A stretch of DNA of 64,000 nt. It comes from an uncultured Gammaproteobacteria bacterium. GTDB lineage: Bacteria > Patescibacteriota > Patescibacteriia > Magasanikbacterales > GWA2-37-8. The stretch lies in the NCBI GenBank assembly GCA_964355175.1, contig CAYHBZ010000002.1:119189-183188 (forward strand), written 5' to 3'. Positions 5,231 through 62,206 of the stretch are shown in pieces. Each line of letters starts with the position of its first letter. The stretch's first letter is position 1. The notes below the pieces were generated by a model that saw nothing but the letters and a program-made list of their open reading frames with translations, searched no databases and was not told where the DNA came from. The position numbers and the translations under genes were made by a program.

Positions 5231-5260
5231 TCCCCCGACTAAGTCGGGGGATTTTGTTTT
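5231..5260 (+). terminator. rho-independent terminator after nrdJ
   Basis: Hairpin TCCCCCGAC-TAA-GTCGGGGGA followed by TTTTGTTTT. Confidence 0.6.
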
Positions 5261-5903: not shown

Positions 5904-6074
5904 ATACTTTTTTCTCTACAAAGCTGCGGTAGAACTGATGTATTAATCGGATCGGATTCTGAAAGCATTCTCTCTCTGGCTACTTTATGATTCGTTATCT
6001 AGTAGTCGCGTTTTCTAGATTTGATTCGCCAATTGAAACATGCAATTCTTCTCGCAGCTTTGTGGAGAAAATTT

Positions 6075-6155
6075 GCTCGGGTGGTGTAATGGTAGCCACA
6101 AGGGACTTAAAATCCCTCGCCGAAAGGCATGCGGGTTCGAGTCCCGCCCCGAGCA
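6075..6155 (+). tRNA. tRNA-Leu (anticodon TAA)
   Basis: Manual fold. Acceptor GCTCGGG/CCCGAGC, D-loop with GG, anticodon stem AGGGA/TCCCT with loop CTTAAAA, long variable arm CGCCGAAAGGCAT, and T-arm GCGGG-TTCGAGT-CCCGC. CCA is not encoded. Confidence 0.8.
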
Positions 6156-6162
6156 CAAGAGT

Positions 6163-20153: not shown

Positions 20154-20181
20154 CACCCCGACTCAATCGGGGTGTTTTTTT
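20154..20181 (+). terminator. rho-independent terminator after rpoC
   Basis: CACCCCGACTCAATCGGGGTG followed by TTTTTTT. Confidence 0.7.
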
Positions 20182-20184
20182 GTT

Positions 20185-20211
20185 GTCATCCTGAGCAAAG
20201 CGAAGGATCCC
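20185..20211. repeat. GTCATCC..GGATC intergenic repeat, copy a
   Basis: GTCATCCTGAGCAAAGCGAAGGATCCC. Related to the copies at 21185, 23339/23381 and 34304. Confidence 0.4.
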
Positions 20212-20260
20212 TTCATGCGCTTGATTTTTGGTTAATATATGTTAAAATTATGTTATTATC

Positions 20261-20437
20261 ATTCTCCACGAAACAATTATTTTTTAACAGTGAAACGTTC
20301 GCACAATTTGCAACTCCTTCCGCTCTGGCCGTGAACTCGTCGTTTGGCTCCTCAAACAGCACGGCCAGCCACGCGTCAGGACTCACAAATTGTCTGCTCA
20401 CTTTTTCAATGTTAAAAAATAATTGTTTCGTGGAGAA
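20261..20437. repeat. 177-bp element bounded by perfect 29-bp inverted repeats
   Basis: ATTCTCCACGAAACAATTATTTTTTAACA (20261-20289) and its exact reverse complement (20409-20437) flank a 119-bp GC-richer core. The core contains hairpin CTGGCCGTG..CACGGCCAG. Confidence 0.5.
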
Positions 20438-20455
20438 TTCTAAATTTATAAGTTT

Positions 20456-21178
20456 ATGTCAGGACATTCAAAATGGCACAATATTCAACAGCGCAAGGGT
20501 AAACAGGATGCCAAGCGCAGTAGTATGTTTTCTAAATTTTCTAAGGCGATTACTATCGCCGCACAGCGTGGCGGCGGTGATCCCGACTCTAATTTTTCTT
20601 TGCGTATCGCGATAGATAAAGCCAAAGCGGTATCAATGCCAAAGGATAATATTGAGAGGGCTGTCAAAAAAGGTATTGGTGCGGATGGTGGTGCTCAGAT
20701 CGAAGAAGTGTACTACGAAGCTTTTGGTCCAGGCGGTACAGCAGTGATTATTAAATGTCTCACTGATAATAAAAATCGTACCGTGGCTGATGTAAAACAT
20801 ATTTTGACCAAAAATGGTGGCAGTATGGGAGGTAATGGTAGTGTGATGTGGATGTTTGAACAGTGTGGAATTATTCAGTTTGAAAAGTCTAAAATACCGG
20901 GAGGTATGGAGCTTTTTGAATTGGAAATTATTGAAGCTGGAGCGGACGATATATCTATTGAAGGGGATCAAGTAGAGATAAAAACTAAGGTAGAAAATTT
21001 TGGCAAAGTATCTGGTAAACTAAAAGAGCTTGGTATTGAAGCGGACGATGCTGGTCTGCGCTACGTCGCCAAAGAAGAAATGGCCATAGACGAAGAAGTG
21101 CGTGAACAAATATCCGGATTATTTGAAGCCCTAGAAGAAAATGATGATGTGGATGATTATTATACCAACGCCGGTTAA
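20456..21178 (+). CDS. yebC: YebC/PmpR-family probable transcriptional regulatory protein
   Basis: MSGHSKWHNIQQRKGKQDAKR.. N-terminus and overall YebC architecture. Confidence 0.9.
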   Translation: MSGHSKWHNIQQRKGKQDAKRSSMFSKFSKAITIAAQRGGGDPDSNFSLRIAIDKAKAVSMPKDNIERAVKKGIGADGGAQIEEVYYEAFGPGGTAVIIKCLTDNKNRTVADVKHILTKNGGSMGGNGSVMWMFEQCGIIQFEKSKIPGGMELFELEIIEAGADDISIEGDQVEIKTKVENFGKVSGKLKELGIEADDAGLRYVAKEEMAIDEEVREQISGLFEALEENDDVDDYYTNAG

Positions 21179-22684: not shown

Positions 22685-23335
22685 ATGTTAAAAGTTTTAT
22701 ACGAAGACAATCACCTAATCGCTGTATTCAAACCGGCCGGTGTTTTGGTACAAGGGGATGATACCGGGGATGAATGTCTAATGGATGAAGTGAAAGATTA
22801 TATCAAAGAAAAATATAATAAGCCTGGGCAGGTATTTTTGGGGCTTTTGCATAGATTGGATCGTCCGGTGTCGGGGGTAGTTTTATTTTCCAAAACCAGT
22901 AAGGGAGCCGCTAGATTATCCGAGCAGATTCGTAGTCATACAGTGCAGAAAACTTACCGGTGTCTGGTAGAGGGTAAGCTTAAAAAAGAAAAAGGCACTT
23001 TGGTAAATTGGCTCAGAAAAGATGAACAAAAAAATAAGACCACTGTTTTTGATGTAGAAAGAGGGGATGCAATGTATGCTGAATTGGATTACAAGGTATT
23101 AAAGACTGATGGTAAAAATTCACTGCTGGAAATTAATCTCAAGACCGGTCGTCCACACCAGATTCGCTCCCAGCTGGCGCATCTAGGGCATCCGATAATT
23201 GGCGATCTAAAATACGGCGCCAGATATGCCAATCCAGATAAATCCATTTCACTTTGTTCAACTTCTTTCACTTTTGAAACCGCTACTGGTGGAGAAACAA
23301 AAACAGCGACTGTAGAGCCGCCGTTTTCTCTATAA
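22685..23335 (+). CDS. RluA-family pseudouridine synthase
   Basis: HRLDRPVSGVVLFSKT catalytic-Asp motif of the RluA family. Confidence 0.85.
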   Translation: MLKVLYEDNHLIAVFKPAGVLVQGDDTGDECLMDEVKDYIKEKYNKPGQVFLGLLHRLDRPVSGVVLFSKTSKGAARLSEQIRSHTVQKTYRCLVEGKLKKEKGTLVNWLRKDEQKNKTTVFDVERGDAMYAELDYKVLKTDGKNSLLEINLKTGRPHQIRSQLAHLGHPIIGDLKYGARYANPDKSISLCSTSFTFETATGGETKTATVEPPFSL

Positions 23336-23411
23336 CATTTTGTCATTCCCGTGAAAACGGGAATCTAATGAATTAATGTGGATTCCCGTTTTCACGGGAA
23401 TGACAAAATGT
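23335..23411. terminator. bidirectional hairpin: perfect 27-bp inverted repeat (GTCATTCCCG family) between convergent genes
   Basis: TTGTCATTCCCGTGAAAACGGGAATC (23339-23365) and its exact reverse complement (23381-23406), separated by a 15-bp spacer. Each arm contains the sub-hairpin CCCGTGAAAACGGG. Confidence 0.55.
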
Positions 23412-24106
23412 TATATTTTCTCAAAGAGCGGTTTATATATATCTTCCTTGATATCTATTTTTAATTCTGTGTGATTTATCTTGTATGTGAATTCTATTGG
23501 CGCGTCCGATATTACGCAGAGCGGTTGTTTTTCTGTGCCTTCGCCCATCACCAGTACGGCGGCGGTAGCCAGACTATCGGCAATATCGGTTTTGGAAAAT
23601 TCAAATGGTCGTCCGAATAAATCCGGTTTACCAATATAATTTTTTATCCCTTTGAACCCGGCGTATCCTAGAGAGATGCCGACCACGCCGGCGCGTAGAG
23701 GCAATAGGCGACTATCGGTAACGATTACCCCTAGTTTTTTGAGACGATATTTTTTTCGTATGTGATCACGAATTATTTTGGCACTGGCGTAGCTATTCTG
23801 TGGTAATAATATTAATTTGCCATTGGCGTTGGATTCGTCCACGCCGGCGTTGGCCAATACATCACCATCTTTTATCGTAAGGTATACATATTTGGTTTTT
23901 ACACCCCAATCACTTTCTTTTTTTATGATAGCGTCTTTTTCTTTTTCATTTTTTACCACACAAAATCTGCCCTCTGATAAAGCAATAATTTTGGAAGTTA
24001 CTACTACGACATCTTTCTCTTTTATTTTGGGTAAATATTTATCCAAAAAATCCAAAAGATTTTCGTTTTCTTTAAACAGTTTGGTTTTGAACGGTTGGAC
24101 TAGCAT
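23411..24106 (-). CDS. CofE-like protein (F420-0:gamma-glutamyl ligase family fold)
   Basis: VVVTSKIIALSEGR, ANAGVDESN and DSRLLPLRAGVVGISLGYAG blocks match the CofE/nitroreductase-associated ligase family pattern. Confidence 0.65.
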   Translation of the reverse strand: MLVQPFKTKLFKENENLLDFLDKYLPKIKEKDVVVVTSKIIALSEGRFCVVKNEKEKDAIIKKESDWGVKTKYVYLTIKDGDVLANAGVDESNANGKLILLPQNSYASAKIIRDHIRKKYRLKKLGVIVTDSRLLPLRAGVVGISLGYAGFKGIKNYIGKPDLFGRPFEFSKTDIADSLATAAVLVMGEGTEKQPLCVISDAPIEFTYKINHTELKIDIKEDIYKPLFEKI

Positions 24107-27112: not shown

Positions 27113-27327
27113 AATGTTTCACCTCCTGGGTACTCTCTTTAAAGTGAGAGTCTTTTAATTTTTTCTACTCGCGAGTGCGAGAAAAAATTTTTTAGAAGAA
27201 TCTTTTTACAAGACAAGCATTGTTGTAAAAAAATTTTTTCTTTCGACCTACATATATTATAATCTTTTCCTTTGGAAAATGGAATAGTATTTGGGAAAGT
27301 TATACACAGGGTGTCAATGGAATCTAA

Positions 27328-27506
27328 TTTATAAAATATTTTAATTTATTTTTATACTTTGCTTCGCTTTGGACAAATTGAAAATTTTTTCTTTACGTAA
27401 AATGCATAACTCGCTTCGCTCAAACAGATGCATTTTACTAAAAAAATTCTCAATTTGTTTCCAAGAGCTTCGCAGAGTATAAAAATAAATTAAAATATTT
27501 TATAAA
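27328..27506. promoter_or_regulatory. ~180-bp complex palindrome with three direct GCTTCGC motifs at ~52-54 bp phasing
   Basis: The arm TTTATAAAATATTTTAATTTATTTTTATAC (27328-27357) is mirrored at 27477-27506. There is an inner palindrome GTAAAATGCAT..ATGCATTTTAC. GCTTCGC occurs at 27361, 27413 and 27467. Confidence 0.4.
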
Positions 27507-27523
27507 TTAAAAAACTTTATTCT

Positions 27524-27744: not shown

Positions 27745-28512
27745 TTACTCTGAATCACCGGTTTGTTTTTTCATTATTTCAATCTTTGGTCCTTTCCACG
27801 CTTTTATTTTTAGCGCGGCTTCGGCCGCTTCGGTTTGGGCTTCTTGTTTACTGCTACCCATGCCCGAGGCAATTAATTCTTTTTCTAAAAATATACCTAC
27901 CTTAAACATTTTGTCATGATCTGGTCCACTTTCTTCAAGTACTCTATAGGTTGGAGTGACACCTATTAATTCTTGAGCGGATTCTTGGAAGCGACTCTTG
28001 GCGTCCATATACAGACCATTTTCTAAAATGTAAGGTAATTTAGTAAGAACATAGCGGGCAATGAATTGCTTGGCACCATCATATCCTTGATCTACATATA
28101 TGGCACCCACTACTGCTTCGAAAGCATTCGCCATGATATAGTCTCGAGCTTTGGTGCCAGCGTCTTTGGCTTCACCGTGGCTGAGAAATAGATATGGCTC
28201 CATGCCAATTTCATACGCGACGCTGGCCAGCATTTTGGCATTTACCAGAGCGGCGCGCCAGTTGGTGAGTTCACCTTCTGGATTTTCATATTGATTGTAA
28301 AGATATTCAGTGACGACTAATTCTACCACAGCATCTCCTAAAAATTCAAGTCTTTCGTTTTGGCCCAGAGCGAAGTCATGGTGCTCATTGAGATAAGAGC
28401 GGTGCACGAAGGCTTGGTATAAGATGTTGATGTTTTTGAATTTTACTCCTAGTTTATTTTCTAGTAAGGGGAAATTTTTTTCCTGTACTTCGGGTAAACT
28501 GTTGATGTCCAT
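27745..28512 (-). CDS. rnc: ribonuclease III
   Basis: RNase III signature ERLEFLGDAVVELVVTEY and a C-terminal dsRBD. Confidence 0.93.
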   Translation of the reverse strand: MDINSLPEVQEKNFPLLENKLGVKFKNINILYQAFVHRSYLNEHHDFALGQNERLEFLGDAVVELVVTEYLYNQYENPEGELTNWRAALVNAKMLASVAYEIGMEPYLFLSHGEAKDAGTKARDYIMANAFEAVVGAIYVDQGYDGAKQFIARYVLTKLPYILENGLYMDAKSRFQESAQELIGVTPTYRVLEESGPDHDKMFKVGIFLEKELIASGMGSSKQEAQTEAAEAALKIKAWKGPKIEIMKKQTGDSE

Positions 28513-30999: not shown

Positions 31000-31025
31000 A
31001 TTCCCGACTAAGTCGGGAATTTTTA
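31000..31025. terminator. bidirectional terminator ATTCCCGACTAAGTCGGGAAT
   Basis: A-run, hairpin and T-run between the HAD gene (+) and the convergent TrmB-like gene (-). Confidence 0.6.
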
Positions 31026-38340: not shown

Positions 38341-38468
38341 GCCTCCATCCGTCAACGCGCTCCCCCGACTTGGTCGGGGGCGGGAAGGAAGTTAAAACCA
38401 CCCACTACTCACTTTGGGGCTAAGATTTGGCCATAGAGTGAGGAGGATTTTCGGGTGGTTTTGCTTTC

Positions 38469-49946: not shown

Positions 49947-50873
49947 ATGCACAAATTACCAAAGGTTATCTTTGTTATCGGTCAGACCGCTTCCGGTAAA
50001 ACCGCCTTGGCTATAGAATTAGCCAAGAAATTTAACGGTGCTATTATAAATGCCGACTCTAGGCAGGTTTATAAAAAAATGGATATTGTCACGGCCAAGC
50101 CGCTGGCCGACAAGAACAGCTCTAAGTCGGAATATATTGTGGAAGGAATAAAGCATTATCTAATGGACATTTATGACCCAGGCAAGAATTTTACTTTAGC
50201 TGGTTTCAAAAAGCATGCTTTGGAGGCGATAAAAACAATTTTAAATAATGGTCAACTGCCTATAGTGGTGGGAGGAACCGGATTATATATTTGGTCTTTG
50301 GTGGATAATTTGGATATTCCGGCGGTCGCTCCCAATAAAAAATTACGCAGTAGTCTAGAAGAAAAATCTTTGCCTGATTTGGTAAAATTATTAAAAAATG
50401 TGGACGCAAAATCCGCAGAAAAATTAGATTTAAAAAACAAGCGCAGAGTTCTTAGGGCGCTTGAAGTATCTCTAAGCAGTGGCGAATCCTTTACGAAACA
50501 ATCCACCAAATCGGATCTAATTTATAATAGTCTGCAGATTGGTTTGGCCTGGAAGCGAGATGAAATTTATAAACGAATTGAAGATAGGGTGGATATGCAG
50601 ATAAAAAATGGAGCAATAGAAGAAACTAAAAATTTAATTGAAAGTTACCCTGATAATTTACCCAGTTTGAGCACTATCGGCTACAAACAAATTGCCGCTT
50701 TTTTACGAGGGGAGAGTACTTTGGAAGAAGCCGTGCAACAATTTAAGCGTGACGCTCGTCGTTATGCCAAACGCCAGGAGACTTGGTTTAAAAGAGATGA
50801 TAGGATACAGTGGATTGAGAAAAATGATGCCGCGGCTGCCAGCGAGCTAGTGAAAAAATTCTTGGAAAAATAA
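49947..50873 (+). CDS. miaA: tRNA dimethylallyltransferase
   Basis: P-loop GQTASGKT, DSRQVYK and the overall MiaA architecture. Confidence 0.9.
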   Translation: MHKLPKVIFVIGQTASGKTALAIELAKKFNGAIINADSRQVYKKMDIVTAKPLADKNSSKSEYIVEGIKHYLMDIYDPGKNFTLAGFKKHALEAIKTILNNGQLPIVVGGTGLYIWSLVDNLDIPAVAPNKKLRSSLEEKSLPDLVKLLKNVDAKSAEKLDLKNKRRVLRALEVSLSSGESFTKQSTKSDLIYNSLQIGLAWKRDEIYKRIEDRVDMQIKNGAIEETKNLIESYPDNLPSLSTIGYKQIAAFLRGESTLEEAVQQFKRDARRYAKRQETWFKRDDRIQWIEKNDAAAASELVKKFLEK

Positions 50874-50880
50874 TTAAAAC

Positions 50881-51053
50881 AAAAAAATACCGTACAATTT
50901 TCACCTGATAAAAGTTCGCATAATTGGCTATAAATTTTCGTTATGGCCCTAAGGGTAGGGCCATTGTCCCGACTAAGTCGGGACACCACTCAAATTTACT
51001 TACGCCAATTAGGGGCTCACTTTTATGCGGTAAAAATTGTACGGTATTTTTTT
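50881..51053. mobile_element. MITE-like element copy 1: ~130-bp conserved core with imperfect TIRs, inserted in the loop of a bidirectional terminator palindrome
   Basis: The host palindrome AAAAAAATACCGTACAATTTT (50881-50901) and AAAAATTGTACGGTATTTTTTT (51032-51053) flank the core 50902-51031. The core is ~95% identical to 60961-61081. The core ends CCTGATAAAAGT..CATAATTGGC and GCCAATTAGG..ACTTTTATGCGG are inverted. Confidence 0.55.
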
Positions 51054-51056
51054 GTT

Positions 51057-52943
51057 TTAATTATTTAGAGGAATCTCATCTCCGGTGAGTTCCAGTTGTT
51101 TGCCGGTGACGCTGTCTTGGGCTTGGATGTGCACTTTGGAAACCAGGATATTTTGAGTAGGATTTTTCTTATTGATAACTACTGAGAATGGCAGGGCTAA
51201 GACATCGCTATTTTCGGTAAGCTCAGGGATATCCCATACCAGATGTTTGGAGTTTTGGTCAAAGGACAGGGTGCCGGCTGGAGTAGACGAAGCGCTCATA
51301 AAGGTGATGTCGCCAAACAAATCAGCAGTTACTTTGATATTTTTGAGAGTGTGAAAAGTGTTGGAAAGAATCCAGGTAATATCGTGATTTTCGCGTTCTT
51401 TACTGTCGGAGCTGATCTCATTTTTTTGTTTAAATTTTAAATCTGAATTCAAAGTAATTATAATGGCGTTGCCAGAAATTGTCTGGGTAGCGCCCGTTTT
51501 ATCAGTATAGGTCAAGTTCGTGTTTACAGTAACTTGGTAGGTATCAACACTCGACCAAGGAGCGGTATCACTGTTTTTTATCGGAAGTTGGAACTCAATA
51601 TTAGTTTGTCCGGAAGGCTTTATTAGATTTAGATCTTTGTCTTTACTGCTATCCCACGCCAAAGCAGCACGACGAATGGAATCTGAAATTTGTGAGCCAG
51701 TAATATCACCATCATGTTTGTCGGCAATGTCGGACCAAGCTAAAACACTTTGTTTTTTGTAAGATGGAGAGTCTACTACCAATTGAACCTTTGCTTTACT
51801 GATATCATCTTTGCCGGCATTTTTCACGGCGATAGTAAAGTTTAAAATTTCACCTGGCTTGGAATCAAAATCGGTCAAAGAACCGTTGATAGCGGTATTA
51901 ATAATTACCGAATTCTTAATCAGTTCCGTCCTTAGGGTGGATTCAGCCAAAAGGTAGCTGGTTTGAGCTTGTTGGTCCGCCAACGAAACTTGCACCTTTA
52001 GATCCGAAGCATCAGCCGAAGCGTCATTGAATTGTCCACTGAAAGAGATTACGTATTGGTTGGCCAAAGTAGAAGTAGCGGCTTTTATATTCCAAACATT
52101 TTTCTCCAGCGGCAAGCTCGAGCTAGCCATTACAAAGCTGGGAGGGAAAATAGGAGACACTATCAAGTTTTTGTTGGCTAAATTGTCTTTGCTTTTGATA
52201 GTAATGGTATAGGTCGAAGGACTGCCTACCGCCACTTTGTCGAGACCGGCAATGGCCACCGATATTGGGGCTTGGTTTGGTTTGATATCCAAGGTGGCTA
52301 CTTTTTGCATCTCGGAATTGAAATTTTCTGGAGTGAAGTTGAGTAACGCGCGCCAGGAAATAGCGGTGCCGACCGATCCGAAAGAATTACCGGTAATTTG
52401 CAAAGTTTTTTCTTCGTGTGGTTTTAATGTGCCGAGATCCCATGCATTTTTTCCAATATTTTTTGGTTCCAGTGAGCTTTGTAGGAAAGAGAATCCTGTA
52501 GGATAGTTTAGGGTTAAGGTGACTTTGTTTAAATTTACACCCTGATTATTTTTGAAGCGTATGCTATAGGTAGTGGTGGCCCCTACGACAAAATTTTGCG
52601 GTCCTTCAATCGCCAAATCCACCTGTGAGTCATCGAATTGTCCACCATTTGGTAGGAATAAGAAGCCGGTCCAGGCCATGGCGGCTAATAAGGCAACGGT
52701 GAAAAAGAATTTGAACATGCCAGCGATAAAAGATCCACTTGAAGTGCGTTTGATCTCGCGCATGTTTGGCAAGCGACCGCTGTCATCTTCGTAAATATCT
52801 TTTAATTGGCGACCGATTTTTTCGCTAGTTTGATCCTCGGCGGATTCTTCTGCCACTACTTTGCGAACGCGGCGTGGTTTTTTTGGAGCAGTTGATTCGT
52901 TTGAAAAAAATTTTTCTTCGGACATAAATTTATTTATTTTCAA
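51057..52943 (-). CDS. hypothetical membrane-anchored protein with large beta-rich extracytoplasmic region (628 aa)
   Basis: N-terminal basic region, one TM, then repetitive beta-strand-like segments. Overlaps the upstream gene by 14 nt, suggesting an operon. Confidence 0.6.
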   Translation of the reverse strand: MKINKFMSEEKFFSNESTAPKKPRRVRKVVAEESAEDQTSEKIGRQLKDIYEDDSGRLPNMREIKRTSSGSFIAGMFKFFFTVALLAAMAWTGFLFLPNGGQFDDSQVDLAIEGPQNFVVGATTTYSIRFKNNQGVNLNKVTLTLNYPTGFSFLQSSLEPKNIGKNAWDLGTLKPHEEKTLQITGNSFGSVGTAISWRALLNFTPENFNSEMQKVATLDIKPNQAPISVAIAGLDKVAVGSPSTYTITIKSKDNLANKNLIVSPIFPPSFVMASSSLPLEKNVWNIKAATSTLANQYVISFSGQFNDASADASDLKVQVSLADQQAQTSYLLAESTLRTELIKNSVIINTAINGSLTDFDSKPGEILNFTIAVKNAGKDDISKAKVQLVVDSPSYKKQSVLAWSDIADKHDGDITGSQISDSIRRAALAWDSSKDKDLNLIKPSGQTNIEFQLPIKNSDTAPWSSVDTYQVTVNTNLTYTDKTGATQTISGNAIIITLNSDLKFKQKNEISSDSKERENHDITWILSNTFHTLKNIKVTADLFGDITFMSASSTPAGTLSFDQNSKHLVWDIPELTENSDVLALPFSVVINKKNPTQNILVSKVHIQAQDSVTGKQLELTGDEIPLNN

Positions 52944-58518: not shown

Positions 58519-59775
58519 ATGAGCATTGAAAAAAAACGAAAAACACTGTGGACCAGAATTTTGCTAATTAGCTCGGTAGTTGGTCCGGGGATTATTGCCG
58601 GTACGGCCGATAACGATGCGGGTGGAATTGCGACTTATTCGGTGGCAGGCGCACAGTTTGGCTATCATCTGATTTGGGTCTTATTTTTGGTCACTTTTGT
58701 TTTGGCTATCACCCAGGAAATGGGTGCTCGTTTGGGTATTGTATCGGGCAAAGGTTTGGGCGCTTTGATTCGTGAAAATTTTCCTTTCAAAGCGACATTT
58801 TTGATAATCCTTTTGAGTTTTATTGCCAATTGGGCAAATATTTTAGCCAATGTAGCCGGTATGTCGGCGGTGGCCACAATTTATGGTATTCCGGCTTGGG
58901 CTTTTGTATTCAGCTCAGCTGGCTTACTCAGCTGGCTGGTAATATCTGGAAATTTTAAAAATATTCAGCGAGTATTTCTCACTTCTTCGCTGATGTATTT
59001 GGCCTATGTTTTTGCCGGTTTTATGATTCATCCAGATTGGGTTGAGGCAACCAAGTCTATTGTGGTGCCGTCTATTATTCCAACTCCGGAATTTCTATTT
59101 ATGGCCATTGCTTTAATTGGTACTACTGTTACCATTTGGGGTCAGTTTTTTGTTCAATCTTATTTTGCTGAAAAGGGTGTGCGCACCGAAGATTTAACTT
59201 TGGCCAGATTGGATGTTGGCGCTGGTGCTATTTGGACAAATTTTGTGGCCTTTTTTATCATCGTGGCTACGGCCGGCACATTATATGTAAAAAATATTAG
59301 CATTACCGATGCCGCCGATGCCGCTTTGGCACTGGAGCCCTTTGCCGGAGCTATGGCCAAACATTTATTTGCCTGGGGTCTATACAATGCCGCCATGCTT
59401 GGCGCCGGTGTAGTGACTATTTCTACTGCTTATACGATCACCGAAGCGTTTGGTTGGGAAGGGAAAATAAATGCGGGATTTAAAGAATCAGCTTCATTTT
59501 ATAAGATATTTTTGGTGTGTATTTTTTCAGCCGCAGTCATAGTGCTTATACCAAATTTTCCAATCGTGACAGTGTTGGTCGCCTCGCAAGCGCTGAATAC
59601 TTTTGTCTTACCAATATTATTTTTCTTTCTATTGCGTCTGCTTAACCGCAAAGATATTATGGGTAAATATGTCAACGGAATAGCGGCGAATATTTTTGGC
59701 TGGGTTTCGATTGTCGCGCTTACACTTTTAAATTTGGCTTATTTCATTTATCTGATTGTTTCTAAATTTAAATAA
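58519..59775 (+). CDS. NRAMP-family divalent metal cation transporter (MntH-like)
   Basis: GPGIIAGTADNDAGGIATYS and ITQEMGARLG NRAMP signature regions. 11-12 TM helices. Confidence 0.88.
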   Translation: MSIEKKRKTLWTRILLISSVVGPGIIAGTADNDAGGIATYSVAGAQFGYHLIWVLFLVTFVLAITQEMGARLGIVSGKGLGALIRENFPFKATFLIILLSFIANWANILANVAGMSAVATIYGIPAWAFVFSSAGLLSWLVISGNFKNIQRVFLTSSLMYLAYVFAGFMIHPDWVEATKSIVVPSIIPTPEFLFMAIALIGTTVTIWGQFFVQSYFAEKGVRTEDLTLARLDVGAGAIWTNFVAFFIIVATAGTLYVKNISITDAADAALALEPFAGAMAKHLFAWGLYNAAMLGAGVVTISTAYTITEAFGWEGKINAGFKESASFYKIFLVCIFSAAVIVLIPNFPIVTVLVASQALNTFVLPILFFFLLRLLNRKDIMGKYVNGIAANIFGWVSIVALTLLNLAYFIYLIVSKFK

Positions 59776-60916
59776 TAATTTTTTCAATAGCGGCCAACCA
59801 ATTGGTAGCCGCTTTTCCCCAAGAGTAATTTTCGGCCACAGTGTGGCCTTTTTTAATATAATTATTTTTTAATTGAGAATCGGTCAATAAAATTTTTATC
59901 CCTTGAGTGAGCTCGGTTACTTTATTCGGATTTACCAGATAAGAGGCATTGCCAGCAATCTCCGGTAGAGATGAGCGGTTGGCGGCGATAGTGGGTGCGC
60001 CCATACGCATCGCTTCAATGAGTGGGAAGCCAAAACCCTCGTAGAAACTATCGAAAATAAATAAGGAAGACAAGGTGTAAAAAACCGGTTTGTCTTCGGC
60101 TGCAATATAGCCGATAAATTTTATCTGCGAGGCGAGCGGTGATTTGATGGCGGTTTCGTAAATTTCTTTATTTTTCCAACCAGGAGCGCCCACGATTATT
60201 AGAGAGTATTTGGCCGTAAGTTCGGCGGGTAATTTTTCATAAGCTTTTATCACGGTGATGATGTTTTTGCGAGGCTCAATAGAACCTAAAAACAAAATAA
60301 AATTTTCCGGCAGGCTGTAGCGGTGTAGTACACGAGTTTTGTCCGTAGCCAAAGTAGGATTGGTAAGAGAAAAATTATTATCCACGCCAGGATAAATGGT
60401 TTTTATTTTTTCTTTTGGTATTTGATAATAATTCACTAAATCACGCCTAGTATTTTTTGAAGGTACAATAACTAAACTAGCGTTTTGGCATTGTTTCTTT
60501 GGTCCAATTATTTTATGCCAGAAGTTTTGTTTGATAGTGTAAAATTCTGGGAAAAGTTCAAATGATAGGTCGTGAATCGTGAGCAGGTATGGGATGTGAT
60601 GGCTGAGATTAAAAAAATTTAAATTGGGCGCGTACCAACAATCAATTTTTACCGGAATAAATTGATCAATTTTGATGAGTTTAAACAACAGCGCCAGGTT
60701 AAAAAATTTATTTGGATAGTTGCCCTGTACATAGTGAACATTATTTTGTTGCCAGGGCAAATTTTTGAGATTATAGTTTTTTGCGGCATTATAAAATAGG
60801 TAATACCGGTTTTTGGTATCCAATTTAAAAATAGCGTTGAGGAGCTCAAAGGTATACTCGCCAACGCCAGTTTTGTTTTTTGTCATCAGTGGGCGGATGT
60901 CGATGCCAATGTTCAT
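59768..60916 (-). CDS. glycosyltransferase family 4
   Basis: EGFGFPLIEAM motif and GT-B fold length. Confidence 0.85.
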   Translation of the reverse strand: MNIGIDIRPLMTKNKTGVGEYTFELLNAIFKLDTKNRYYLFYNAAKNYNLKNLPWQQNNVHYVQGNYPNKFFNLALLFKLIKIDQFIPVKIDCWYAPNLNFFNLSHHIPYLLTIHDLSFELFPEFYTIKQNFWHKIIGPKKQCQNASLVIVPSKNTRRDLVNYYQIPKEKIKTIYPGVDNNFSLTNPTLATDKTRVLHRYSLPENFILFLGSIEPRKNIITVIKAYEKLPAELTAKYSLIIVGAPGWKNKEIYETAIKSPLASQIKFIGYIAAEDKPVFYTLSSLFIFDSFYEGFGFPLIEAMRMGAPTIAANRSSLPEIAGNASYLVNPNKVTELTQGIKILLTDSQLKNNYIKKGHTVAENYSWGKAATNWLAAIEKIII

Positions 60917-60934
60917 ATATGTTCAAGTATCACG

Positions 60935-61107
60935 CCGGATAAGATGTCTAATAATTTTTACCTGATAAAAGTTCGCATAATTGGCTATAAATTTTCGTTA
61001 TGGCCCTAAGGGTAGGGCCATTGCCCTTTCAGGGCACCACTCAAATTTATTGACGCCAATTAGGGGCTCACTTTTATGCGGAAAAAATTATTAGACATCT
61101 TATCCGG
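60935..61107. mobile_element. MITE-like element copy 2, inserted in the loop of a different host palindrome
   Basis: The host palindrome CCGGATAAGATGTCTAATAATTTTT (60935-60959) and its reverse complement (61083-61107) flank a core that is ~95% identical to copy 1. The internal hairpin is GCCCTTTCAGGGC here, against GTCCCGACTAAGTCGGGAC in copy 1. Confidence 0.55.
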
Positions 61108-62206
61108 CTCGGCTGGTTTGAAATTTAGAATATTGCTCGGTGACAAATTTCTCTATCTCGGTTTTGAAGCGGTCGGTGGAGAAATTTTGGGCGTGGGTGC
61201 GAATTTTTGTGCTATCAAAAGTAGTGTGGTCAAAATTGAGTAGGGTGTGTAGGAGTGATTCCCAAGTTTGTTCGGTAAAGAATACGCCGGTTTGGCTAGG
61301 GATTACTGTTTCGGTGGCGCCGCCTTGATTGAAAGCGATTATTGGACGACCAGCGGCCATAGCCTCGAGTGGTGTGATGCCGAAATCTTCTTTTTGAGGA
61401 TGAATAAAAGCAATGGCTTCGCTAAGTAATTTAATTTTTTCTTCTTCGGAGATTTTGCCGTAGAATTCAATATTGGCTTTGGCCATTCTTTTTAGGTGAG
61501 GGTATTCGGTACCGGTGCCAAAAATTTTTAGCGGCCAACCTAGACGGTTGAAGACTTTTATTATCAAGTCCATGCGTTTGTATGGTACCAAGCGTCCGCC
61601 GGCTACAAAATAATTTCCCAATTTAGGAGCGATTTGAAATCTAGCCGTGTCTACCGGAGGAAAAATTACTTCACTGGTGCGGCGATAATATTTTTCAATA
61701 CGGCGTTTGACGGTATTTGAGTTGGCGATAAAATGATCAACACGCTGGGTGCTAAGTTGATCCCACAAACGCAGACGATGGGTCAGTAGTGGTAAAATAA
61801 TTTTCACCAGTCGGTTGTTTTTTAAGTCTGAAAGATAGTTGTTACCATCGCCCCACAAAAAGCGTGGTGGAGTGTGGCAGTAGGCGATATGGAGAGTATC
61901 GGGTGAAGTAATAACTCCTTTGGCAAAACCCGAAGATGATGAGATTACCAGATCAAATTTTTGTAATTGGTGGCGTTCGGTGGCCAGGGGCATGAGCGGT
62001 AGATACCACTGAAAAATTTGATTTACAAATGGCAGGCGATTGAGAAAAGAAGTATGAATTTTTTCACTATCCAAGTAGTTAATTTTATTGGCATCGTGGA
62101 ATAAAACAAAAATTGGCGCATCCGGCCAAATTTCATGTAAGGCTTTGAGCACTTTTTCCGCCCCTCCATCCTGAGAAAGATAATCGTGAACTAGGGCCAC
62201 CTTCAT
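61100..62206 (-). CDS. glycosyltransferase family 4
   Basis: FGITPLEAMAAGRP motif. Confidence 0.85.
   Translation of the reverse strand: MKVALVHDYLSQDGGAEKVLKALHEIWPDAPIFVLFHDANKINYLDSEKIHTSFLNRLPFVNQIFQWYLPLMPLATERHQLQKFDLVISSSSGFAKGVITSPDTLHIAYCHTPPRFLWGDGNNYLSDLKNNRLVKIILPLLTHRLRLWDQLSTQRVDHFIANSNTVKRRIEKYYRRTSEVIFPPVDTARFQIAPKLGNYFVAGGRLVPYKRMDLIIKVFNRLGWPLKIFGTGTEYPHLKRMAKANIEFYGKISEEEKIKLLSEAIAFIHPQKEDFGITPLEAMAAGRPIIAFNQGGATETVIPSQTGVFFTEQTWESLLHTLLNFDHTTFDSTKIRTHAQNFSTDRFKTEIEKFVTEQYSKFQTSRAG

Follow-up and report, generated by a model that had tools for sequence, protein, structure and literature searches.

In the 64,000-nt stretch of DNA analysed here (the window), which comes from an uncultured member of the Magasanikbacterales (contig CAYHBZ010000002.1), a 175-nt palindrome separates two GT4 genes. 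An interpretation made from the letters alone, hereafter the sequence-only reading, had described it as the second copy of an element similar to a miniature inverted-repeat transposable element (MITE), with a near-identical interior set in two different palindromes. What is this element, how does it come to lie in palindromes that differ from copy to copy, and what keeps it base paired? Our preferred answer, to which we give a probability of roughly 0.55, is that the palindrome between the GT4 genes (copy 2, or w2) belongs to a lineage-restricted family of non-coding, non-autonomous hairpin repeats, resembling either MITEs or the repetitive extragenic palindromic sequences (REPs) and the hairpins formed by REP doublets (REPINs). 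Its members would nest in gene-end palindromes, whether of terminator type or newly made, and their core would be copied by a factor-dependent process acting on single strands.

Copy 2 is bounded by CCGGATAAGATGTCTAATAATTTTT at 60935–60959 and by its exact reverse complement at 61083–61107, which matches the perfect 25-bp inverted repeat noticed before; a repeat finder extends the arms to 60934–60972 and 61070–61108 (39 nt at 92%). A 25-mer of the core has just two matches in the window, at 50942 and 60999, where shuffles predict 0. The first match lies in copy 1 (w1), where the inverted repeat (50868–50915 and 51019–51066) is longer and unlike that of copy 2, and where the outer arms pair without exception at 34 of 34 positions as read from the sequence and by the repeat finder. 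The same core thus sits in two different palindromes, as had been claimed. In a pairwise alignment the two cores differ in the inner hairpin P4 (GTCCCGACTAAGTCGGGAC in copy 1, GCCCTTTCAGGGC in copy 2), in ACTTAC versus ATTGAC, a second small difference that the sequence-only reading had also picked out, and in one base at each core edge; the remainder is identical. In each copy either strand folds much more stably than shuffled sequence (z between −10.6 and −17.3), with somewhat greater stability on the minus strand. For copy 2 the fold reaches −84.3 kcal/mol on the plus strand (z = −10.6) and −88.4 kcal/mol on the minus strand (z = −13.2).

A pattern scan placed these two copies in a family, fam1, with at least nine further members in the metagenome-assembled genome (MAG) Ike-150m-44 of Candidatus Magasanikbacteria, which is ~80% identical to the window genome in coding DNA. 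All copies are intergenic; the MAG count of nine comprises the copies matching the scan pattern and is a lower bound. The core measures ~122–125 bp. All 11 copies share ACC...GGT, usually with AATTTTT before it, and an imperfect inner inverted repeat, ACCTGATAAAAGT / ACTTTTATGCGGT, while the long outer inverted repeats differ in each copy. The family occurs at about ten copies per genome in a few tiny genomes of Magasanikbacteria, which belong to the candidate phyla radiation (CPR). Among 185,579 GTDB representatives the pattern GTTCGCAYAATT-N70-100-GCTCACTTTT has genuine matches in one species only; six other genome matches and all five matches in JGI metagenomes were discarded as chance occurrences inside genes. 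The pattern scan of IMG/VR returned 0 matches, and blastn against 50,697 phage and 72,556 plasmid records gave no match that would point to a phage or plasmid origin. A covariance model, on which fam1 copies score 144–166 bits, found no further or degenerate copies in ~290 kb of related DNA and recovered only a sister family, fam2, of which one copy (w3) lies in the window.

The single strand of the core is modelled as a rod, in which a basal helix with two adjacent G.A mismatches leads through helix P2 to a three-way junction with P3 and P4. P4 is a Watson–Crick hairpin of 4–8 bp in 11 of 11 copies and exists in 10 different versions. In P3, five of nine pairs have compensatory changes (variants ATGGCCC/GGGCCAT, ACGGCTC/GAGCCGT and ATGACC/GGTCAT), and P2 covaries with w3. 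Altogether, compensatory double changes were found in 13 of 40 core pairs, compared with 4.1 ± 1.4 in shuffles and 1–4 when the partner columns were slid. The inner segment has thus been rewritten with its hairpin kept, as had been proposed, and is not a plain indel; the flanks are palindromic in all 11 copies as well. A structure-aware alignment of the copies, which the sequence-only reading had suggested as a test for selection on RNA, bears out the inner pairing; with pairs that are almost only Watson–Crick and an element that lies in either orientation relative to transcription, selection at the RNA level is no more than possible.

At the base of the core the motifs GTTCGC and GCTCAC oppose each other; read on the plus strand they form two T/C mismatches, and on the minus strand two adjacent G.A mismatches (GTGAGC/GCGAAC) with Watson–Crick pairs around them. 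A canonical kink-turn was considered and rejected, as the two adjacent G.A mismatches are present but no 3-nt bulge could be read beside them. CsrA-type or anti-Shine–Dalgarno loops (AGGG / CCCU) were dropped because the orientation to transcription is not fixed. G.U versus A.C mismatches gave mixed evidence for strand assignment, and no call was made. At 11 of 13 independent loci the G-rich strand carries the plus form (p ∼0.02 by our two-sided binomial estimate, with the skew taken from 8-kb pieces only), a bias that is only suggestive of a replication-linked, strand-specific process.

Outside P4 the cores of the window are on average 0.954 identical to those of the MAG, and the MAG copies 0.949 among themselves (11-copy alignment); copy 1 and the MAG copy on L005 are 100% identical there. 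Four-fold degenerate sites of the flanking genes are only ~52% identical between the window genome and the MAG and are thus saturated. Saturated neutral sites next to a core of ~95% identity imply that the core is either constrained, by a host function or by whatever copies it, or exchanged between species.

If the constraint came from the host, the element would be a functional structured or cis-acting RNA, such as a 3′-end stabiliser, an RNase III or terminator module or a small RNA, kept by purifying selection at each locus and occasionally duplicated. The conservation just described would be expected of such an RNA, as would the strong covariation in P2, P3 and P4, the conserved junction and P3 loop, and the adjacent G.A motif, which exists on one strand only, namely the one that folds better. 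No decayed copies were seen in 290 kb, and RNase III is encoded in the window. However, at tandem sites the element is found in both orientations to the flanking genes (L012 vs w2 and L010), and at each of the loci examined some close relatives have it and others lack it. Pairs in the core and stems are almost exclusively Watson–Crick, with essentially no G.U, which points to constraint on both strands or on the DNA. Rfam 15, which includes ribozymes, 6S, tRNA-like and OMEGA/HEARO RNAs, reported three tRNAs when run on the whole window at the gathering score, none of them at the element; locally, at E ≤ 10, its best hit (27.8 bits, cut-off 211) was to a plant miRNA hairpin and is spurious, and ARAGORN found no tRNA or tmRNA at the element. 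Weighing both sides, we consider a host RNA an unlikely explanation.

How the element comes and goes was followed in a graded series of homologues of the neighbouring GT4 gene, whose contigs were compared at orthologous loci. The junction between the two GT4 genes is found in three states: without insert, with a homologous palindrome that lacks the core, and with palindrome and core (Table 1). The tail TGTTCAAGTATCAC is common to all occupied orthologous sites and missing at empty ones. A footprint of core excision was looked for in the core-less loop of L026 and was not convincing. At the miaA site (copy 1), the core is present in the window only, and L021, L023, L025 and L026 have ordinary palindromes of A-tract, stem and T-tract. 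The core-less palindrome of the closest relative, L023, shares its outer arms AAATAATTAAAAC...TTTTAATTATTT with the window, and the outgroup L028 has overlapping genes at this site, where a palindrome was not found. At the PGM site the MAG copy replaces a GC-rich terminator tip, and the outer A/T tracts of the core-less L031 terminator are homologous. Downstream of recG, the MAG has fam1, L032 has fam2, and L031 and L033 have neither. Occupied and empty sites among relatives were thus observed at four loci, where the core as a whole has been acquired or lost at hairpin tips. The central idea of the sequence-only reading, that a repeated, non-coding, MITE-like unit inserts into palindromes, is thereby supported.

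The outer stems, however, are not simply pre-existing. They are copy-specific, 20–36 bp long and nearly perfect (~3 non-Watson–Crick pairs in ~330 bp), with a 2x2 mismatch next to the core that is kept in every copy. At two sites part of the stem can be traced to the local flank. In copy 2 the outermost right arm, termed F, is local sequence that was already there, as the empty site of L024 has GCCGGATAA, then TAT ATG; from that GCCGGATAA-TAT-ATG, the window differs in reading GCCGGATAA-[X-core-X']-TTATCCGGC-GTGATACTTGAACA-TAT-ATG, with a 9-bp inverted duplicate of the gene end. Upstream of recG, the empty sites of L032 and L033 have the 13-bp AATGGTGGGAGCT with the ribosome-binding site directly before the ATG, and the sites occupied by fam2 in L005, L030 and L031 read AATGGTGGGAGCT, X-core-X', the inverted copy AGCTCCCACCATT and a short tail. 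The stop codon of a neighbouring gene often lies within the outer arm; in copy 2 it is that of the GT4 gene at 61100–62206. We know of no description of inverted duplicates of the target flank as an integration signature of bacterial mobile elements. Core-adjacent stem bases, read by eye, are alike among the non-orthologous copies w1, L005, L010, L012 and L001; part of the stem therefore travels with the core.

Copy 2 and its ortholog in L013 differ at nine of 26 outer-stem positions, eight of the nine are exactly compensated, and both stems are perfect. With four-fold degenerate sites of the flanking genes at only ~52% identity, the arms therefore diverge at a roughly neutral rate yet stay complementary, without G.T intermediates. 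The arms of copy 1 are perfect with the core in place, and the core-less L023 homologue is imperfect in its outer part. Quasipalindrome template switching perfects and expands inverted repeats and introduces compensatory multi-base changes in single events (PMC7202029, PMC8794818, PMC13100816). The stem features match what template switching during replication produces, and it may have acted here. The sequence-only reading had argued for pre-existing palindromes and against covariation of one helix. Its first half stands, with core-less palindromes at orthologous sites; its second half does not, for the stems also covary and are in part newly made, and both processes occur.

The compensated changes also bear on the possibility that the elements are an array of double-stranded binding sites for a chromosomal protein, comparable to bacterial interspersed mosaic elements (BIMEs)/REPs with gyrase or IHF, the hairpin potential being incidental. 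An array of this kind would be intergenic, multi-copy and conserved in sequence, would lie at convergent gene ends and would have no fixed orientation, all of which is seen: six of 12 copies lie between convergent genes, and the others between co-directional genes in either orientation to transcription (neighbours are GT4, miaA, rpoC, yebC, recG and PGM). Direct GYTCRC repeats on both arms moreover give an otherwise symmetric element a polarity. But a duplex site needs no compensation, yet P2, P3, P4 and the stems keep pairing through double substitutions, and no candidate protein is known. We therefore regard this possibility as highly improbable.

Hairpin tips appear to be exchanged beyond the family itself. 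The 15-nt palindrome CCCGACTAAGTCGGG forms the tip of ordinary terminator-like hairpins at 5234–5248 and 31003–31017 and the P4 of copy 1 at 50968–50982; with variants at 20157–20171 and 38364–38378 there are 10 matches over two strands against 0.06 expected, which suggests hairpin-tip exchange. A hairpin of ~67 nt is nested in the fam1 core between TTTTAT and CAGG in L023 (25–95) and L025 (35–105), where it brings a new local palindrome, CCTGAT/ATCAGG, and differs between the two contigs by compensated changes. In L033 (3700–3765) a further hairpin, CCCGCC-TTCGC...-GGCGGG, is nested in the loop of the terminator that follows secY (AAATCCTCC...GGGGGATTT); in L005 and L032 this loop measures 4 nt.

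Such observations raise the question of whether a dedicated element is needed at all. Instead, a hairpin cassette might move between terminator palindromes with similar A-tracts and T-tracts, through ectopic gene conversion and template switching and without specific recognition. The general swapping or invasion of tips, including the P4 shared with the tips at 5234 and 31003, fits this explanation, as do the 67-nt hairpins nested in the core, the hairpin nested in the secY loop, the GC-rich tip replaced at the PGM site with junctions in shared A/T tracts, and the recG-downstream site that holds fam1 in one genome and fam2 in another. But recognition-free spread fails to account for 112 positions of the core that are ~95–100% identical between species whose neutral sites are saturated, while stems and P4 diverge freely, and the insertions between the GT4 genes and upstream of recG had no prior terminator and hence no homology arms. 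This explanation is, in our view, quite unlikely, somewhat more so than a host RNA.

In the reading that we prefer, the arms would be made and kept perfect by intra-strand template switching in replication (quasipalindrome correction, fold-back), and the core would be copied from hairpin to hairpin by a replication- or recombination-linked process acting on single-stranded hairpins. Copying would depend on sequence-specific recognition of the core by a putative trans-acting factor, which would explain a core that is near-invariant across species. At a hairpin tip the core is probably tolerated because it simply lengthens the host hairpin. Copy 2, if transcribed, would form a 175-nt hairpin between the GT4 cistrons and is a predicted substrate of RNase III (27745–28512), as a side effect; the GT4 operon may thereby be affected through termination or RNase III. 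It is possible rather than likely that the core is, more specifically, an undescribed structured single-stranded module, of RNA or of DNA exposed during replication, that is held near-invariant across Magasanikbacteria species by a dedicated trans-acting partner, within an ultra-small CPR genome and in a long-term association like that of REPINs with REP-associated tyrosine transposases (RAYTs), lands in gene-end hairpins and propagates in a way coupled to template switching.

Several points weigh against a mobile family of this kind. Nearly all 112 core nucleotides are conserved, and not just the ends. The copies look old, with P4 and stems saturated, which selection at each locus for a host or RNA function would explain no worse than selfish spread would. 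The cores of the orthologs w2 and L013 are among the least similar (0.92), and their P3 and P4 variants differ; replacement or conversion must therefore have played a part at this site. Pfam and synteny annotation of the ~50 open reading frames (ORFs) of the window revealed no transposase, reverse transcriptase or integrase, and ~290 kb of related DNA contained neither solo ends nor longer elements sharing these ends. A direct target-site duplication, looked for at four loci, was not clearly seen; the flanks at copy 2 and upstream of recG are inverted duplicates. Copy number is low, ~10 per genome, and the mechanism of core transfer is one that we infer entirely.

The search for a partner gene covered 64 kb of the 953,736-bp genome and 8–21-kb pieces of relatives. 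The window ORFs are of housekeeping type (rpoBC, gyrA, ruvBC, RNase III, ftsH, ribonucleotide reductase and a glycosylation cluster), with no RAYT (Y1/HUH) gene, which is typically single-copy and flanked by the repeats, among them in the 64 kb. The only direct-repeat candidate, AATT, is itself palindromic and is missing in L015. Palindrome-associated elements derived from IS200/IS605 are marked by an orientation bias specific to the lagging-strand template and by a fixed tetra- or pentanucleotide target; no fixed target motif was found here at the GT4, miaA, recG or PGM loci. A retron msr/msd was rejected because no reverse-transcriptase gene lies nearby.

Table 1. Positions of copy 2 and its parts, of the other copies in the window, and states of the orthologous site between the GT4 genes (window positions unless contigs are named).
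Feature	Position or contigs	Strand	Description
Copy 2, whole palindrome	60934..61108		175 nt; inverted-repeat match, repeat finder and fold
Tail TGTTCAAGTATCAC	60920..60933		locus-specific; between palindrome and downstream GT4 start codon
F'	60934..60942		GCCGGATAA on the plus strand, inverted duplicate of GT4 gene end; missing at empty sites
X, left outer stem GATGTCTAATAATTTTT	60943..60959		copy-specific; differs from ortholog L013, changes compensated
Core (fam1), ACCTGATAAAAGT ... ACTTTTATGCGG	60960..61081		conserved; 11-copy alignment and covariance model
GTTCGC motif	60971..60976		opposite GCTCAC; invariant in fam1 and w3
P2, 5′ half TAATTGGC	60978..60985		pairs with 61055-61062 (GCCAATTA); two compensatory pairs vs w3
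P3 hairpin ATGGCCCTA-AGGG-TAGGGCCAT	61000..61021
P4, GCCC-TTTCA-GGGC	61023..61035		hypervariable inner hairpin
GCTCAC motif	61066..61071		partner of GTTCGC
X', right outer stem AAAAATTATTAGACATC	61083..61099		copy-specific
F	61100..61108	-	GT4 gene end (GCC GGA TAA), final codons and stop; outermost right arm
Copy 1 (w1), whole palindrome	50868..51066		core 50903-51031, P4 50966-50984
w3, diverged fam2 copy	20243..20456		between rpoC and yebC; own outer palindrome
GT4/GT4 site, no insert	L021, L022, L024, L027, outgroup L028		3-9 nt between stop and ATG
GT4/GT4 site, palindrome without core	L026		19-bp homologous palindrome
GT4/GT4 site, palindrome and core	window, L013, L023, L025

Copy 2 is flanked by the start of one GT4 gene (59768–60916, minus strand) and the stop of the other (61100–62206, minus strand). 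Neither arm is followed by a run of T (CTCGGC on the plus strand, GTGATAC on the minus strand), so that copy 2 is not an intrinsic terminator. Copy 1 lies between the convergent miaA (49947–50873, plus strand) and a CLIPPER-domain gene (51057–52943, minus strand) and, like most MAG copies, has A-tract and T-tract flanks. Within the glycosylation locus of copy 2, the GT4 gene of L025 groups with the window clade (74% vs 58–62%) and the adjacent Nramp gene with L028 and L029 (87% vs 82%), which indicates recombination or transfer. A more distant relative has an unrelated hairpin element of ~145 nt with GAGTTCGCACAAGCGAAGG at the same GT4 junction (L029:1028–1173). The short-read contigs L023, L025, L030 and L031, from four samples, end inside elements, and for this reason only parts of the copies near recG in the window's own genome were visible.

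Scanning for long inverted repeats brought up the sister-family copy w3. With fam1 it has just the basal motifs in common (GTTCGCAYAATTKGC ... AATTNNNNGCTCACTTTT), its apical domain being different, and it scores 67.9 bits on the covariance model (E = 1.9e-12). Further fam2 copies lie at L005:4398–4584, L032:12075–12262, L030:1–120 and L031:1–60. As in fam1, the outer arms are copy-specific and perfect, and internal helices are compensated, for example AAAATGC/GCATTTT versus AAAACAC/GTGTTTT. Many hairpins of these genomes contain, on one strand, YGAGC/GCGAR, in which two G.A mismatches lie side by side. At 20186–20210 lies a mini-hairpin CTGAGC-AAA-GCGAAG with two adjacent G.A mismatches, in which YGAGC/GCGAR appears as at the base of fam1 and fam2; both families look as if they were loop expansions of such a mini-hairpin.

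Other hairpins were noted in the window. A perfect 35-bp palindrome with a 15-nt spacer (23331–23415) lies between convergent genes for a pseudouridine synthase and an F420-ligase-like protein and contains GTCATTCC...GGAATGAC, a motif also found in the L029 element. A rod-like hairpin of ~185 nt at 27325–27509, with outer arms of 38 bp at 97%, adjoins tRNA-Arg and tRNA-Lys and holds GCTTCGC three times (GCGAAGC on the other strand). Immediately upstream of tRNA-Leu (6075–6156), a 19-bp inverted repeat (95%) surrounds 124 nt at 5910–6071. The RNase III gene lies at 27745–28512, and perfect stems of 25–45 bp are predicted substrates of its product if transcribed.

CPR/Patescibacteria genomes measure ~1 Mb and are thought to be poor in repeats. 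A persistent family of conserved hairpins in so streamlined a genome raises the question of what maintains it. Its loci record, side by side, inverted copies of gene ends and ribosome-binding sites, paired divergence of stems at the neutral rate, and hairpins nesting in hairpin tips, and they make a role of template switching in the creation and upkeep of hairpins directly testable with population metagenomes. Repeats of this kind also break short-read assemblies, and their covariation can let them pass for structured-RNA genes. Literature searches on MITEs in Patescibacteria and on MITEs in terminator loops yielded nothing relevant.

Compared with known systems, the family is set apart from both the REP/REPIN and the MITE class because its arms are variable around a conserved centre, it has no clear direct target duplication, and no partner gene was found in the 64 kb of the window. 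REPs and REPINs, which are mobilised by RAYT Y1/HUH transposases, carry two conserved REPs of ~25 nt as arms around a variable spacer (PMC3116915; bioRxiv 10.1101/2021.07.10.451892). Like them, the elements described here are extragenic, repeated within the genome, short, non-coding and non-autonomous, form hairpins as single-stranded DNA or RNA and often lie between convergent genes; they likewise form a population grouped about a conserved master sequence, which endures in related lineages, and replicate at a low rate. In place of two inverted units, however, they have a conserved centre with copy-specific arms, and ~10 copies compared with the tens to hundreds of REPINs. Their core is a 122-nt three-way junction, their host belongs to the CPR, and no RAYT was found in the window.

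In the long-hairpin MITEs Correia/NEMIS, ERIC/IRU, RUP and bcr1 the terminal inverted repeats are conserved, and the target duplications are short and direct (e.g., TA). These MITEs resemble the present family in being non-coding, intergenic long hairpins of 100–200 bp that are present or absent at orthologous sites, and in being co-transcribed with their neighbours with potential RNase III or terminator effects. Unlike theirs, the outer repeats here differ from copy to copy and include inverted duplicates of the flank, and no cognate insertion sequence (IS) is known. Autonomous, transposase-encoding ISs of at least 1 kb, namely IS1397, ISKpn1, ISPpu9/10 and IS621, target REP or palindromic-unit hairpins (PMC1525189; PMC12288879). 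They share with our family the placement of a mobile sequence specifically inside extragenic palindromes, but what is inserted here is a non-coding hairpin of 122 bp that continues the host stem.

Two further comparisons concern processes and sites rather than elements. Quasipalindrome template switching fits the perfect arms, the multi-base compensation without G.T intermediates, the outward growth of the repeats and the inverted copies of neighbouring sequence. It is, however, a mutational mechanism and not an element, and leaves the conserved core and the new loci unexplained. Bidirectional intrinsic terminators resemble copy 1 and most MAG copies, which have A-tract, stem and T-tract at convergent gene ends, and the core-less homologues are terminator-like. 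In contrast, copy 2 has no T-tract and lies between co-directional genes that are otherwise translationally coupled, and an insert of 122 nt at the tip falls outside terminator models.

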